Source: Escherichia coli (lineage in GTDB: Bacteria; Pseudomonadota; Gammaproteobacteria; Enterobacterales; Enterobacteriaceae). Taken from it: 64,000 bases of DNA. Shown one piece after another: positions 1-5,303 of the stretch. The stretch is from NCBI RefSeq assembly GCF_024700885.2, contig NZ_CP117016.1. One strand, 5' to 3'. The position numbers and the translations under genes are program-made. Every line of letters begins with the position of its first letter. The stretch's first letter is position 1. A model generated the notes under the pieces. It saw only the letters and a program-made list of their open reading frames with translations, was not told the DNA's origin and did not search any database.

Positions 1-1258
1 ATCGGACGGTGCGGAAGTTGCCGTCAGCAAGACCACCGGCATTAGCGTAAGCACGCGTTATGGTGAAGTGGAGAATGTTGAATTCAATAGCGATGGCGCG
101 TTGGGGATCACTGTTTATCACCAGAACCGCAAAGGTAGCGCATCGTCTACCGATTTAAGCCCGCAGGCCATTGCCCGCACCGTACAGGCGGCACTGGATA
201 TTGCCCGTTATACCTCGCCAGATCCCTGTGCCGGCGTGGCAGACAAAGAGCTGCTGGCCTTTGACGCACCGGATCTCGACTTGTTCCACCCTGCGGAAGT
301 TTCCCCGGATGAAGCCATTGAACTGGCGGCCCGCGCAGAACAGGCGGCATTGCAGGCGGACAAACGCATCACCAATACCGAAGGCGGCAGCTTTAACAGC
401 CACTACGGTGTCAAAGTTTTCGGCAACAGCCACGGCATGTTGCAGGGTTACTGCTCTACGCGTCATTCGCTCTCCAGCTGTGTAATTGCTGAAGAAAATG
501 GCGATATGGAGCGTGATTACGCCTACACCATTGGTCGTGCGATGAGCGATCTGCAAACGCCAGAGTGGGTTGGGGCCGACTGTGCTCGCCGTACTTTATC
601 GCGCCTGTCACCGCGTAAACTCTCCACCATGAAAGCGCCGGTCATTTTTGCCAATGAAGTGGCAACCGGGCTTTTTGGGCATCTGGTGGGGGCGATAGCG
701 GGTGGATCGGTTTACCGTAAATCTACCTTCCTGCTGGATTCGCTGGGTAAACAAATTCTGCCGGACTGGCTGACCATTGAAGAGCATCCGCATCTGCTGA
801 AAGGGCTGGCCTCTACGCCATTCGACAGCGAAGGTGTGCGCACCGAGCGTCGCGATATTATTAAAGATGGCATTCTGACTCAGTGGCTGCTGACCAGCTA
901 CTCGGCGCGGAAACTGGGGCTGAAAAGCACTGGACACGCAGGCGGTATTCACAACTGGCGGATTGCCGGACAAGGGCTAAGCTTCGAACAAATGCTCAAA
1001 GAGATGGGTACCGGGCTGGTGGTGACGGAGCTGATGGGCCAGGGCGTGAGTGCCATTACCGGTGATTATTCCCGTGGTGCAGCGGGCTTCTGGGTAGAGA
1101 ATGGCGAAATTCAGTATCCTGTTAGTGAAATCACCATCGCAGGTAATTTGAAAGATATGTGGCGCAATATTGTCACCGTCGGTAACGATATTGAAACACG
1201 CAGTAATATACAGTGTGGTTCTGTGCTGTTGCCGGAGATGAAAATCGCCGGGCAGTAA
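1..1258 (+). CDS. pmbA: Metalloprotease PmbA/TldE, C-terminal part (5' end lies outside the window; reading frame begins at position 2)
   Basis: ORF 68..1258 is open to the window edge; translation recognised as PmbA; followed by cybC as in E. coli. Confidence 0.85.
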
Positions 1259-1438
1259 AAAAACTGGCGCGACCTGCCGCGCTATAAACTAAAAAATTAC
1301 ACAAAATCATTCGCACTGCATCGAGACGGAAAGTGAATGAGGGCCGGGGAGCGTACTCGCAGTACGTGACTCGGGCGAATGAGCGTAGCCGTCGATGAGG
1401 CAGTGTGAAGGATGAAGTGTAAATAAAAAAGGAAGTGA

Positions 1439-1828
<390 letters not shown>

Positions 1829-1837
1829 TTCCTTATT

Positions 1838-1872
1838 GGGCGGTGAAACGTTACCGCCCAACGCTTTCTTCT
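1838..1872 (+). terminator. Probable intrinsic terminator after cybC
   Basis: Hairpin GGGCGGT-gaaacgtt-ACCGCCC followed by a T-rich tract. Confidence 0.45.
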
Positions 1873-1959
1873 CCCTTCGTAAAATCACCGCAATATCTAT
1901 CTTCACCACGGCATATTCCTGCGTGTCGTCCTCATTTTTGCGAGGCGTTTTCCAGAAAT

Positions 1960-1996
1960 GAATGTAATGCATATGTAATGCTATAATGCATTACAC
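1960..1996 (+). promoter_or_regulatory. Candidate promoter/operator of the toxin-antitoxin pair
   Basis: Direct repeats TGTAATGC (x2) and inverted copy GCATTACA; palindrome TAATGCATTA overlaps a TATAAT -10 hexamer about 30 bp upstream of the antitoxin ATG. Confidence 0.4.
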
Positions 1997-2019
1997 TTTT
2001 CATAATTACCGGAGGCATA

Positions 2020-2262
2020 ATGGCCACACTTAACGTCCGCCTGGATGACAAACTGAAAAATGAGGCTTATGCGGTGCTGGAAAAATTAAATATCACGCCT
2101 ACTGAAGCAGTGCGACTGCTGTTTCAGTACGTTGCGGAAAATGGACGAATGCCGGTAAAAACGCTCACTGTCAGTGATAGTGAAGAAGCCTTGTTACGCA
2201 CTGTCAGGGAACGACTGGCCAACCCACAAGAGGCCATTAAGGTCCGACTGGATGAACTATGA
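2020..2262 (+). CDS. Type II antitoxin, RelB/DinJ-like
   Basis: 80-aa acidic protein; N-terminal MATLNVRLDDKLK is a ribbon-helix-helix-like motif; stop overlaps the next ORF by 11 bp. Confidence 0.7.
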   Translation: MATLNVRLDDKLKNEAYAVLEKLNITPTEAVRLLFQYVAENGRMPVKTLTVSDSEEALLRTVRERLANPQEAIKVRLDEL

Positions 2263-2542
2263 GCTGGCGTTTGATCCGCGGGCGCTGAAAGAGTGGCAAA
2301 AACTGGGCGTGACAGTCCGGGAACAATTTAAAAAAAAGCTTGAGGATGTGCTGAAAAGGCCGCGCAATCCATCGGCTAAACTGCGGGATTTACCGGACTG
2401 CTACAAAATTAAGCTGCGCACACAGGGATATCGCCTGGTTTATCAGGTTAACGATAAAGAGTTGCTCGTGTTGGTGATAGCTATTGGTAAGAGAGAGAAC
2501 TCAGCCGTTTATGAAGACGCGACTAAACGGCTGGATGAGTGA
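2252..2542 (+). CDS. Type II toxin, RelE/ParE superfamily
   Basis: 96-aa basic protein from internal ATG 2252 (MNYELAFDPRALKEWQKL...); RelE/StbE-like C-terminal region (YRLVYQVNDKELLVLVIAIGKRE); classic antitoxin-toxin overlap. Confidence 0.7.
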   Translation: MNYELAFDPRALKEWQKLGVTVREQFKKKLEDVLKRPRNPSAKLRDLPDCYKIKLRTQGYRLVYQVNDKELLVLVIAIGKRENSAVYEDATKRLDE

Positions 2543-3007
2543 CTAACGCAAATGATGCACCACCTGATTGCTGCTGCCGCGCCAGATCAGGGAAGGGTCT
2601 TTTAAATCCTGCACAAATTTGCCGTCGACCAGTACGTTAATCAAATCAACAACCTGCATTTGCGCAGCGTTGAGTTCGTCGAGTTTATAGCCTGTCCACA
2701 CCCAAATGTCTTTACCCGGACATTCGGCGCGGATTCGTTGTACCAGTTTCAGAATATCCGGCACGTTTTGCGGATGCAGCGGATCGCCGCCGGAGAGGGA
2801 AATACCCTGGCGTTTGATGCGAGTGTCATTCAGATCGTTAATGATCTGGTCTTCCATTGCTTTGGTAAATGGCTGACCGGAATTTACCCGCCAGGTGCTT
2901 TTGTTATAGCAACCGGGGCATTCATGAACACACCCGGAGACAAACAGGGTGCAGCGAGTGCCGGGGCCGTTGACGATGTCGACAGGATAGTACTGATGAT
3001 AATTCAT
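2543..3007 (-). CDS. nrdG: Anaerobic ribonucleotide reductase activating protein (radical SAM)
   Basis: 154-aa product with CxxxCxxC cluster (CVHECPGC); adjacent to nrdD. Confidence 0.92.
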   Translation of the reverse strand: MNYHQYYPVDIVNGPGTRCTLFVSGCVHECPGCYNKSTWRVNSGQPFTKAMEDQIINDLNDTRIKRQGISLSGGDPLHPQNVPDILKLVQRIRAECPGKDIWVWTGYKLDELNAAQMQVVDLINVLVDGKFVQDLKDPSLIWRGSSNQVVHHLR

Positions 3008-3009
3008 TA

Positions 3010-3160
<151 letters not shown>

Positions 3161-3164
3161 AAGA

Positions 3165-5303
3165 TTAACCTATCTGCCCATTTCCCAAATGTTTAACGCG
3201 GCGCTTAACTTCTTCCTGCTTACCAGCGTTAAACGGACGTGCATCCGGGCTACCTAAATATCCGCACACGCGGCGAGTCACCGATACACGGGAGGTGTCA
3301 TGGTTACCACATTTCGGACAAGTGAAGCCTTTACTAGTGCACTCGAACTCACCGGTAAAGCCACACTCGTAGCACTCATCGATCGGCGTATTGGTGCCGT
3401 AATACGGTACATGCTGATAGCTGTAATCCCAGACATCTTCCAGCGCCTTCAGGTTGTGCTGAATGTTTGGATACTCGCCGTAGCAAATGAAACCACCGTT
3501 CGCCAGCGGCGGGTAAGGCGCTTCAAAGTCGATCTTGTCGTATGGGTTCACCTTCTTCTCCACATCGAGGTGGAAACTGTTGGTGTAGTAACCTTTATCG
3601 GTCACGCCCGGCACCACGCCAAACTCAGCGGTATCGAGACGGCAGAAGCGGTCGCACAGGTTTTCACTTGGCGTGCTGTAGAGACTGAAACCGTAACCCG
3701 TTTCTTCTTTCCACTGATCCACTGCCTGACGCAGACGTTCAACAATTGCGATACCTTTCGCGCGAAGCTGCTCGTTGTCGTAAACATGCTCGCCGCCGAA
3801 CAGCGCGTTAATGGTTTCGTGGATGCCGATGTAACCCAGCGAAATAGACGCACGACCGTTTTTGAAGATTTCAGAAACATCATCGTCAGCATTGAGACGC
3901 ACGCCACAAGCACCTTCCATATAGAGGATCGGGGCCACGCGCGCTTTCACGCCTTCGAGACGAGCGATACGGGTCATCAGCGCTTTACGTGCCAGCACCA
4001 GACGTTCATCCAGCAGCTTCCAGAAGGTGGCTTCATCGCCTTTTGCTTCCAGAGCAATACGCGGCAGGTTCAGGCTGATCACGCCGAGGTTGTTACGACC
4101 ATCGTGGATCTGCTCGCCGTTTTCATTTTCCCACACGCCGAGGAAGCTGCGGCAGCCCATCGGGGTTTTAAACGAACCGGTGACTTTCACTACCTGATCG
4201 TAGTTCAGGATATCCGGATACATGCGCTTGCTTGCGCACTCCAGCGCCAGCTGTTTGATGTCGTAGTTCGGATCGCCTTTTTTATGGTTCAGACCATCGC
4301 GAATTGCAAACACCAGTTTCGGGAACACCGCAGTTTTACGGTTTTTACCGAGGCCTGCGATACGATTACGCAGGATAGATTCCTGAATCAGGCGCGATTC
4401 CCAGCTGGTGCCCAGACCAAAACCAAAGGTTACAAACGGTGTTTGACCGTTGGCGGTGTGCAGGGTGTTTACTTCGTACTCCAGCGACTGGAAGGCATCG
4501 TAGCACTCTTTGATGGTACGAGAGTTAGCGTAGCCTTCGGCGTCCGGGATGTTCCACTCTTCTGCGGTCTTGCGATGTTTGTTGTAGCTGGCGGTGACAA
4601 ACGGTGCCAGCACTTCATCGATACGGTTAATGGTGGTGCCGCCATAAATATGGCTGGCGACCTGGGCAATAATCTGCGCAGTTACCGCGGTTGCCGTAGA
4701 GATCGACTTCGGCGGTTCAATCTCGGCGTTCCCCATTTTAAAGCCCTGGGTCAGCATGCCTTTCAGGTCGATCAACATGCAGTTGAACATCGGGAAGAAC
4801 GGTGAGTAATCGAGATCGTGATAGTGAATATCACCACGTTCATGTGCCTGCACCACGTCACGCGGCAGCAGGTGCTGGCGTGCATAGTGTTTAGCCACGA
4901 TCCCGGCCAGCAGATCGCGCTGGGTTGGAATCACCTTGCTGTCTTTGTTGGCGTTTTCGTTGAGCAACGAGGAGTTGGTCTGCTCGACCAGACCACGGAT
5001 CTCCTGGTTCAGGCGGCCGCGTTTTTCACGTTCAATGTCGCGATCGTGACGGTACTCGATGTAAGCACGAGCCAGTTGTTTGTATGGACCCGACATCAGC
5101 TGGTTTTCAACTGCGGTCTGGATCTCATTGATATCCACCTGGTTGCGGCCCTGCATCTGCTCGCTGACAACCGCAGCAACAGTGGCGCAATAATCGGCAT
5201 CATCGACTTCCGCTGCTTTAGCTGCACGCAGAATCGCTTCTTTGATGCGCTCTGATTTAAACGGCACTTTGCAGCCGTCTCGTTTCATCACATGCGGTGT
5301 CAT
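3165..5303 (-). CDS. nrdD: Anaerobic ribonucleoside-triphosphate reductase (class III)
   Basis: 712-aa product; C-terminal glycyl-radical region (RVCGYLGSP) and Zn-ribbon cysteines. Confidence 0.95.
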   Translation of the reverse strand: MTPHVMKRDGCKVPFKSERIKEAILRAAKAAEVDDADYCATVAAVVSEQMQGRNQVDINEIQTAVENQLMSGPYKQLARAYIEYRHDRDIEREKRGRLNQEIRGLVEQTNSSLLNENANKDSKVIPTQRDLLAGIVAKHYARQHLLPRDVVQAHERGDIHYHDLDYSPFFPMFNCMLIDLKGMLTQGFKMGNAEIEPPKSISTATAVTAQIIAQVASHIYGGTTINRIDEVLAPFVTASYNKHRKTAEEWNIPDAEGYANSRTIKECYDAFQSLEYEVNTLHTANGQTPFVTFGFGLGTSWESRLIQESILRNRIAGLGKNRKTAVFPKLVFAIRDGLNHKKGDPNYDIKQLALECASKRMYPDILNYDQVVKVTGSFKTPMGCRSFLGVWENENGEQIHDGRNNLGVISLNLPRIALEAKGDEATFWKLLDERLVLARKALMTRIARLEGVKARVAPILYMEGACGVRLNADDDVSEIFKNGRASISLGYIGIHETINALFGGEHVYDNEQLRAKGIAIVERLRQAVDQWKEETGYGFSLYSTPSENLCDRFCRLDTAEFGVVPGVTDKGYYTNSFHLDVEKKVNPYDKIDFEAPYPPLANGGFICYGEYPNIQHNLKALEDVWDYSYQHVPYYGTNTPIDECYECGFTGEFECTSKGFTCPKCGNHDTSRVSVTRRVCGYLGSPDARPFNAGKQEEVKRRVKHLGNGQIG

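Follow-up and report, generated by a model that had tools for sequence, protein, structure and literature searches.

The closest described relatives of the locus analysed here are two enterobacterial toxin-antitoxin pairs. The first is RelBE of Escherichia coli K-12, encoded by relBEF in the Qin cryptic prophage (4FXE, 4V7J/K, 2K29). Its operator, relO, contains four [A/T]TGT[A/C]A hexads forming two abutting 12-bp half-sites, TTGTAATGACAT and TTGTAATTACAA, the spacing of which is critical (PMC2812701). In the same work, mutation of R7, I8, K13 or S28 of RelB abolished relO binding and R81A served as a non-toxic variant of RelE (PMC2812701). The second is relBE2ST of Salmonella Typhimurium (relB2/relE2; SL4379/SL4380 = STM4449/STM4450). 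RelE2ST (SL4380 = STM4450) has been placed among the toxins that ‘behave functional’, and relBE2ST is not listed with the pairs for which neutralisation by the antitoxin failed (PMC4366850). Other papers only catalogue the Salmonella pair, while earlier growth data for STM4450 (PMC3868539) have been retracted and are left out here. Literature searches on nrdG together with relBE, and on the RefSeq protein accessions given below, found no publication on the E. coli copy. Further afield, DinJ-YafQ, plasmid StbDE and other pairs of the RelE-ParE superfamily share the models TIGR02384, TIGR02385 and PF05016 with the locus described here, the DinJ-YafQ and StbDE pairs being much more distant from it than K-12 RelBE.

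We call the window the whole stretch of 64,000 nucleotides of E. coli DNA that was analysed. The pair that it carries corresponds by position to Salmonella relBE2ST, its orthologue, and has a paralogue in the Qin relBE of K-12. We read it, with a probability of roughly 0.87, as an intact chromosomal type II RelBE operon, predicted to be autoregulated, at an old locus flanking nrdG that is being lost in E. coli.

Comparison with Salmonella relBE2ST gives identities of 84% for RelB and 69% for RelE. The Salmonella pair shows the same 11-bp gene overlap and operator block and is likewise convergent with nrdG, lying 3 bp from its stop; the Salmonella gene adjoining nrdG is cross-referenced to STM4449 in its record. 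The two loci differ in their upstream neighbour, which in E. coli is cybC and in Salmonella encodes a PRD-domain regulator, and in the centre of the -10 element, TAAACT in Salmonella and TATAAT in the window. With K-12 RelBE the window pair shares gene order, similar protein lengths (79/95 aa in K-12, 80/96 aa here), the catalytic residues, the DNA-contact residues of RelB (R7 and K13 identical, I8 replaced by L and S28 by T) and a TGTAA hexad core beside the -10 box. The genomic context, however, is a prophage in K-12 and the core nrdG flank in the window; the third gene found downstream in K-12 relBEF, hokD/relF, has no counterpart here; and the genes overlap by 1 bp in K-12 but by 11 bp in the window.

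Gene layout and annotation

The left neighbour of the pair is cybC (1442-1828, plus strand). Its terminator hairpin, TTGGGCGGT...ACCGCCCAA, occupies 1836-1861 on the same strand and forms the left edge of the segment missing from K-12, the alignment showing the window to depart from the K-12 sequence from 1838 onward. A leader that is common to E. albertii (1862-1961, plus strand) runs from the cybC terminator to the operator. The Shine-Dalgarno sequence GGAGG, at 2011-2015 on the plus strand, lies 4 nt 5' of the relB start and is invariant in the orthologues. A preliminary description of this DNA had reported an antitoxin of 80 aa and a toxin of 96 aa overlapping by 11 bp, and the open reading frames bear this out: a relB-type antitoxin gene at 2020-2262 and a relE-type toxin gene, predicted to encode a ribosome-dependent mRNA endonuclease, at 2252-2542, both on the plus strand, both with ATG starts and both with matches to the corresponding families, share positions 2252-2262. 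RefSeq gives the same coordinates in an identical genome and assigns the products to the RelB/DinJ antitoxin family (WP_000212715.1) and the RelE toxin family (WP_001105433.1). The layout, with the antitoxin gene first and the toxin gene overlapping it, is that of a type II module and is identical in 11 orthologous loci.

On the right, relE is convergent with nrdG (2543-3007, minus strand). The nrdG stop codon (2543-2545) abuts that of relE (2540-2542), leaving 0 bp between them, and a terminator scan detected no intrinsic terminator between the two genes on either strand. Convergent read-through, by which nrdDG transcripts would run antisense to relE and relE transcripts antisense to nrdDG, seems inevitable. 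An Rfam search of positions 1200-3300 gave no match within the toxin-antitoxin region.

The annotation of cybC itself differs between strains: in K-12 its annotation begins later, giving 121 codons compared with 128 in the window, and the K-12 matches to the window start 19 bases into cybC (503-868 of the extracted K-12 locus, compared with 1442-1828 of the window).

Family identity and key residues

The antitoxin matches Pfam RelB (PF04221, 6e-16), the NCBIfam RelB/DinJ equivalog NF008412 (130 bits, cutoff 96) and TIGR02384 RelB_DinJ and, among proteins of solved structure, it matches RelB at 1e-20. For the toxin, the top Pfam matches are PF05016 ParE_toxin (7e-15) and PF15781 ParE-like_toxin. 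These names would favour a gyrase poison of ParE type over an mRNA endonuclease of RelE type, but the toxin also scores above the cutoff of NCBIfam RelE_StbE (TIGR02385) and shares 64% identity with E. coli RelE itself (61/96 positions against the K-12 protein in NC_000913, with 38/80 for RelB). PF05016 is the model for the entire RelE/ParE superfamily. In the comparison with solved structures, E. coli RelE is matched at E=2e-35, gapless over residues 1-94, with 4V7J/4V7K (bound to the ribosome) and 4FXE (the RelB2E2 complex) among the entries. All the solved structures nearest to the toxin are of RelE, and no solved ParE was matched at E<0.01. Residues R45, K52, K54, R56, R61, R81 and Y87 of K-12 RelE are all identical in the window toxin. 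Five of these, K52, K54, R61, R81 and Y87 (K-12 numbering), which are the active-site residues by their roles in the RelE-ribosome structures, are invariant in 12 syntenic RelE orthologues, and R45 varies among orthologues. Since no ParE structure is matched and the RelE catalytic set is complete, we reject the gyrase poison, which has hardly any chance of being the right assignment.

The Pfam, NCBIfam and solved-structure matches, which far exceed what chance would give, along with a toxin in which the RelE catalytic residues are present, thus uphold the earlier assignment to a RelB/RelE-type type II module. [quoted passage not shown]

Operator and promoter

The preliminary description had also seen a TATAAT box embedded in direct and inverted repeats and had taken these for a likely autoregulatory operator. 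The coordinates agree, the candidate operator and promoter spanning 1962-1995 on the plus strand, where they are marked by repeats, cross-genus conservation and the hexad core of relO. The direct units (ATGTAATGCAT/ATGTAATGC) are 11 bp each, with ATGTAATGC found at 1962-1970 and again, at 11-bp spacing, at 1973-1981. A perfect 8-6-8 palindrome, TGTAATGC-TATAAT-GCATTACA, covers 1974-1995, with TATAAT at 1982-1987 and GCATTACA at 1988-1995, and a 10-nt inverted repeat joins 1963-1972 to 1986-1995. There are three TGTAA hexad cores, at 1963, at 1974 and, on the minus strand, at 1990-1995; they surround the -10 box and hardly vary across seven genera. Counting both strands, TGTAATGC occurs seven times in the 64-kb window where 2.8 occurrences are expected, and three of the seven fall inside 33 bp of the operator. 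The terminator scan also flagged the operator palindrome as ‘terminator-like’, which we regard as an artefact of the palindrome.

In an alignment of the syntenic upstream regions, the block TGTAATGCnnATGTAATGCTAnnnTGCATTACA is near-invariant in Escherichia, Citrobacter, Enterobacter, Kosakonia, Salmonella and Klebsiella, and the DNA further upstream is unalignable. The identity of RelB across these genera is 88-98% for residues 1-48 and 62-81% for residues 49-80. Because a conserved operator footprint with relO-type TGTAA cores, set beside divergent flanks, is here combined with a near-invariant N-terminal domain of RelB, it is very likely that the repeat block is the predicted autoregulatory operator.

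Its geometry is not that of relO. The K-12 operator has its abutting 12-bp half-sites downstream of the -10 box, whereas in the window the 11-bp units run head-to-tail and the palindrome encloses the -10 box, its halves 6 bp apart. As the spacing is unlike that of relO, stoichiometry and cooperativity may differ from those in K-12.

Judging from the sequence, the promoter probably belongs to the extended -10 class, the inferred element being TGcTATAAT at 1979-1987 (plus strand) with its TG at 1979-1980. The pattern TG-n-TAnnnT is kept in all the orthologous promoters, with central bases that vary (TATAAT, TAAACT, TATATT, TATGCT). A generic sigma-70 scan of this region of the window found no canonical promoter because the -35 element is poor; the -35 region is also unconserved.

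Further upstream, positions 1936-1957 (TTTTGCGAGG..TTCCAGAA; TTTTG[A/C]GAGG...T[T/A]TCCA) are conserved in all genera compared. In Salmonella and Klebsiella this block lies across the stop codon of the PRD-domain gene that precedes the pair (3494-3515 of the extracted loci), and it persists in E. coli even though the PRD-domain gene is absent there. It may be a relic of that gene or an upstream promoter element. For the rest of the leader, 1862-1935, comparison with the 3' end of the PRD-domain gene gives a weak hint in Citrobacter (39/2000 shuffles) and in one Enterobacter (76/2000), and no signal for Salmonella, Klebsiella or Kosakonia. That this part of the Escherichia leader, too, derives from the PRD-domain gene is no more than suggested.

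Distribution among E. coli genomes

The occurrence of the locus was assessed with two probes. Of the 5426 complete E. coli genomes, 454 (8.4%) are matched by a 731-bp probe (1830-2560), with at least 80% coverage in 390. A toxin-internal probe matches 393 genomes, 300 of which carry the toxin segment at an identity of at least 99%. The difference between the 454 carriers and the 393 with toxin means that 61 genomes have the leader and antitoxin with the toxin missing. The intact pair is kept in about 7% of complete E. coli genomes. The flanking genes cybC and nrdG are found in 5425 of the 5426, and the non-carriers listed all have a K-12-type structure, with a span of 896 bp compared with 1566 bp in the window. 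The cybC-nrdG spacer measures only 44 bp in K-12 and 714 bp in the window; 35 of the 44 bp are unrelated to the 714-bp interval and fold into a hairpin of -23 kcal/mol. Absence of the pair from the K-12 interval, which the preliminary description had expected, is thereby confirmed, and with 454 carriers out of 5426 the pair is not part of the E. coli core.

Differences between E. coli alleles are mostly synonymous. A second toxin allele, WP_001105432.1 (E. coli XDL and GF131), has the replacements Q58L and Q65S, the latter through a change of all three bases of codon 65, CAG to TCC; the remaining differences in relE are all synonymous.

Synteny, divergence and direction of change

The presence of the pair in only 8.4% of complete genomes and its absence from K-12 could be taken as signs of a recent horizontal insertion, by which some E. 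coli lineages would have acquired a mobile toxin-antitoxin cassette in the cybC-nrdG interval. Toxin-antitoxin modules are often mobile, and enterobacterial plasmids often carry RelE-like pairs at 60-80% DNA identity. The wider distribution, however, speaks against such an event. A one-genome-per-species scan gave 495 relatives of the toxin, of which the closest 80 were kept; among these best 80 of 495, all those with a RelB identity of at least 80% are convergent with nrdG-nrdD. Twelve syntenic loci were then compared, from Escherichia, Salmonella, Klebsiella, Citrobacter, Enterobacter, Kosakonia and an unclassified MAG. The same pair lies beside nrdG in the same orientation in six other genera, the 11-bp overlap of relB and relE is identical across the 12 loci, and in 11 of the 12 relE and nrdG are separated by 0-8 bp, with 0 bp in the window and 3-8 bp in other genera. 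In Enterobacter sp. Bisph1, relE has lost its stop and extends to 117 codons, running 63 nt into the 3' end of nrdG, which is encoded on the other strand (3001-3354 of the extracted locus).

Mean pairwise identity over the 12 loci is 83% for RelB, 72% for RelE and 90% for NrdG. Measured from E. coli, dS is saturated (1 or more) for relB, relE and nrdG alike, so that the divergence of the pair is comparable to that of its core neighbour. Between genera, dN/dS is 0.04-0.10 for relB, 0.09-0.25 for relE and 0.02-0.08 for nrdG; relB and relE are under purifying selection.

A side result of these comparisons is that RelB is better conserved than RelE in all 66 of the 66 pairs formed by the 12 loci. 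An antitoxin more conserved than its toxin is the reverse of the pattern usually expected for such pairs. Conservation of RelB is concentrated in its DNA-binding N-terminal half, matching the invariant operator.

Signs of mobility were sought at the locus and in collections of mobile elements. At the borders of the pair we found no insertion sequence, integrase gene, tRNA, border repeat or target duplication. The 456 copies in E. coli all sit on the chromosome, at a single site, and at an identity above 80% the plasmid and phage sets yielded no copy from a true plasmid or phage: matches in these sets at an identity of at least 70% are confined to chromosome-sized, chromosome-derived or hybrid-looking records, the sole near-identical ‘plasmid’ match being a record of 4.9 Mb. 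Chromosomes of Salmonella Infantis and K. pneumoniae, mis-filed in the phage and plasmid collections, show the same nrdG arrangement. There is, in addition, a decayed remnant of the pair at the same site in E. albertii (see below), and the K-12 allele, with its 35 unrelated bp and hairpin, is a replacement and not a clean empty site. A recent insertion is therefore improbable.

With synteny across genera at saturated dS, the E. albertii remnant, the lack of any mobility signature and the lack of plasmid or phage copies, an ancestral locus is the parsimonious explanation. Of the strain-variable insertion proposed in the preliminary description, the variability between strains stands and the insertion does not. 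The pair is best read as long settled beside the 3' end of nrdG in Enterobacteriaceae, as a locus which a minority of E. coli would have retained and the majority would have lost. Some E. coli lineages may have regained the pair from others through homologous recombination.

Decay and loss in Escherichia

The 61 genomes in which the toxin is missing carry an allele with an orphan relB. Alignment shows that 283 bp are deleted between a left direct repeat, CG-A-CTGGATGA (2245-2255, plus strand), at the end of relB and start of relE, and a right one, CG-G-CTGGATGA (2528-2538, plus strand), at the end of relE. The relE deletion is a product of recombination between 8-bp microhomology repeats, which leaves the antitoxin in frame: the orphan relB encodes 79 aa, ends in RLDE and directly adjoins nrdG (O145 RM8843, 2013C-4282, MSB1_4I). 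The RelE C-terminus reads ...KRL in Salmonella, as in the other genera, while Escherichia RelE ends in KRLDE; the right-hand CTGGATGA repeat that is used for the deletion exists only because of these two extra residues, DE. Junctions of both CGA and CGG type are found, in haplotypes 94-98.5% identical to the window, which suggests more than one origin for the 283-bp deletion. The orphan allele of E. coli MSB1_4I is also without one 11-bp operator unit (ATGTAATGCAT), at about 1640-1680 of the extracted locus, presumably lost by slippage between the direct repeats.

Other alleles are damaged in other ways. One O158:H23 strain has IS100 within relE, and in strain E69 a 2-bp deletion ahead of R81 shifts the relE frame, an allele absent from the RefSeq set of complete genomes, where the best match is 96.1%. 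In E. albertii the remnant has lost the promoter and relB codons 1-58, and its relE is frameshifted in an A-run. The E. coli series, from the intact pair through orphan relB and IS100 or a frameshift in relE to full replacement by the 44-bp hairpin spacer of K-12, shows stepwise loss. Several routes would be involved, namely microhomology deletion of relE leaving relB behind, IS100, frameshifts and replacement by the spacer.

A search for traces of relBE in the K-12 spacer, which might have marked it as a deletion scar, gave alignments no better than shuffles. In a local alignment of the spacer with the window insert, 317 of 1000 shuffles reach the score, and an 11-mer that the spacer has in common with the remnant in E. 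albertii is reduced to an 8-mer without the shared flank (1221/5000).

So much decay raises the question of whether the pair in the window could be intact in sequence yet functionally dead or silenced, a decaying remnant without toxin activity. Favouring this are the 61 relE-deleted genomes, the IS100 insertion, the E69 frameshift and the degraded E. albertii copy, as well as the faster divergence of RelE than of RelB in every orthologue pair. In the window, however, the open reading frames, Shine-Dalgarno sequence, operator and catalytic residues are all intact. The near-identity of the toxin segment in 300 genomes, the mostly synonymous nature of allelic differences, dN/dS well below 1 and the reported activity of the Salmonella orthologue also argue against a dead pair, which we consider very unlikely. 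The intact, predicted autoregulated operon remains our reading of the copy in the window.

Proposed mechanism

The proposed mode of action is drawn from K-12. RelB dimers would bind the TGTAA hexads through their ribbon-helix-helix domain (PMC2812701, PMC3507626) and, once bound, would occlude the -10 box. RelE would act as a co-repressor, an excess of RelE relieving repression through conditional cooperativity, and the C-terminus of RelB would wrap around and neutralise the toxin. On degradation of the labile RelB, for which Lon is responsible in K-12, free RelE would enter the ribosomal A site, cleave mRNA and stop translation. For the E. coli pair of the window, the toxic effect, its neutralisation, the binding of DNA and the promoter are all predictions.

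Significance and further observations

The pair is already known, in the sense that RefSeq assigns its family names and that the Salmonella orthologue has been catalogued and tested, and its novelty is low since it is annotated and its orthologue has been studied. What changes is the reading of the cybC-nrdG polymorphism in E. coli, as loss of an old enterobacterial RelBE locus, not as a gain. The decay series offers a small natural example of chromosomal toxin-antitoxin pairs being dismantled toxin-first, and the operator is a well-footprinted variant of a RelB operator that can be compared with relO.

Two more speculative ideas concern function. The nrdDG operon is induced anaerobically. The tail-to-tail abutment of relE and nrdG, seen in six or more genera, might itself be functional, with nrdDG read-through antisense to relE/relB coupling expression of the pair to oxygen. 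Alternatively, the orphan relB, which is preserved intact together with the operator in its 61 genomes, might serve as a stand-alone repressor or anti-addiction factor in cross-talk with Qin relBE, the Qin operator being built on the same TGTAA hexad. We consider these ideas a long shot.

Two minor features lie outside the pair. Between nrdG and nrdD, at 3027-3178 of the window, there are palindromic units of REP/BIME type, with three sub-threshold Rfam matches to naRNA4. The intergenic region between pmbA and cybC, at 1295-1419 of the window, gives a weak sub-threshold Rfam match to V_AS5; judging by eye against the consensus, we take it to hold an ERIC-like repeat.
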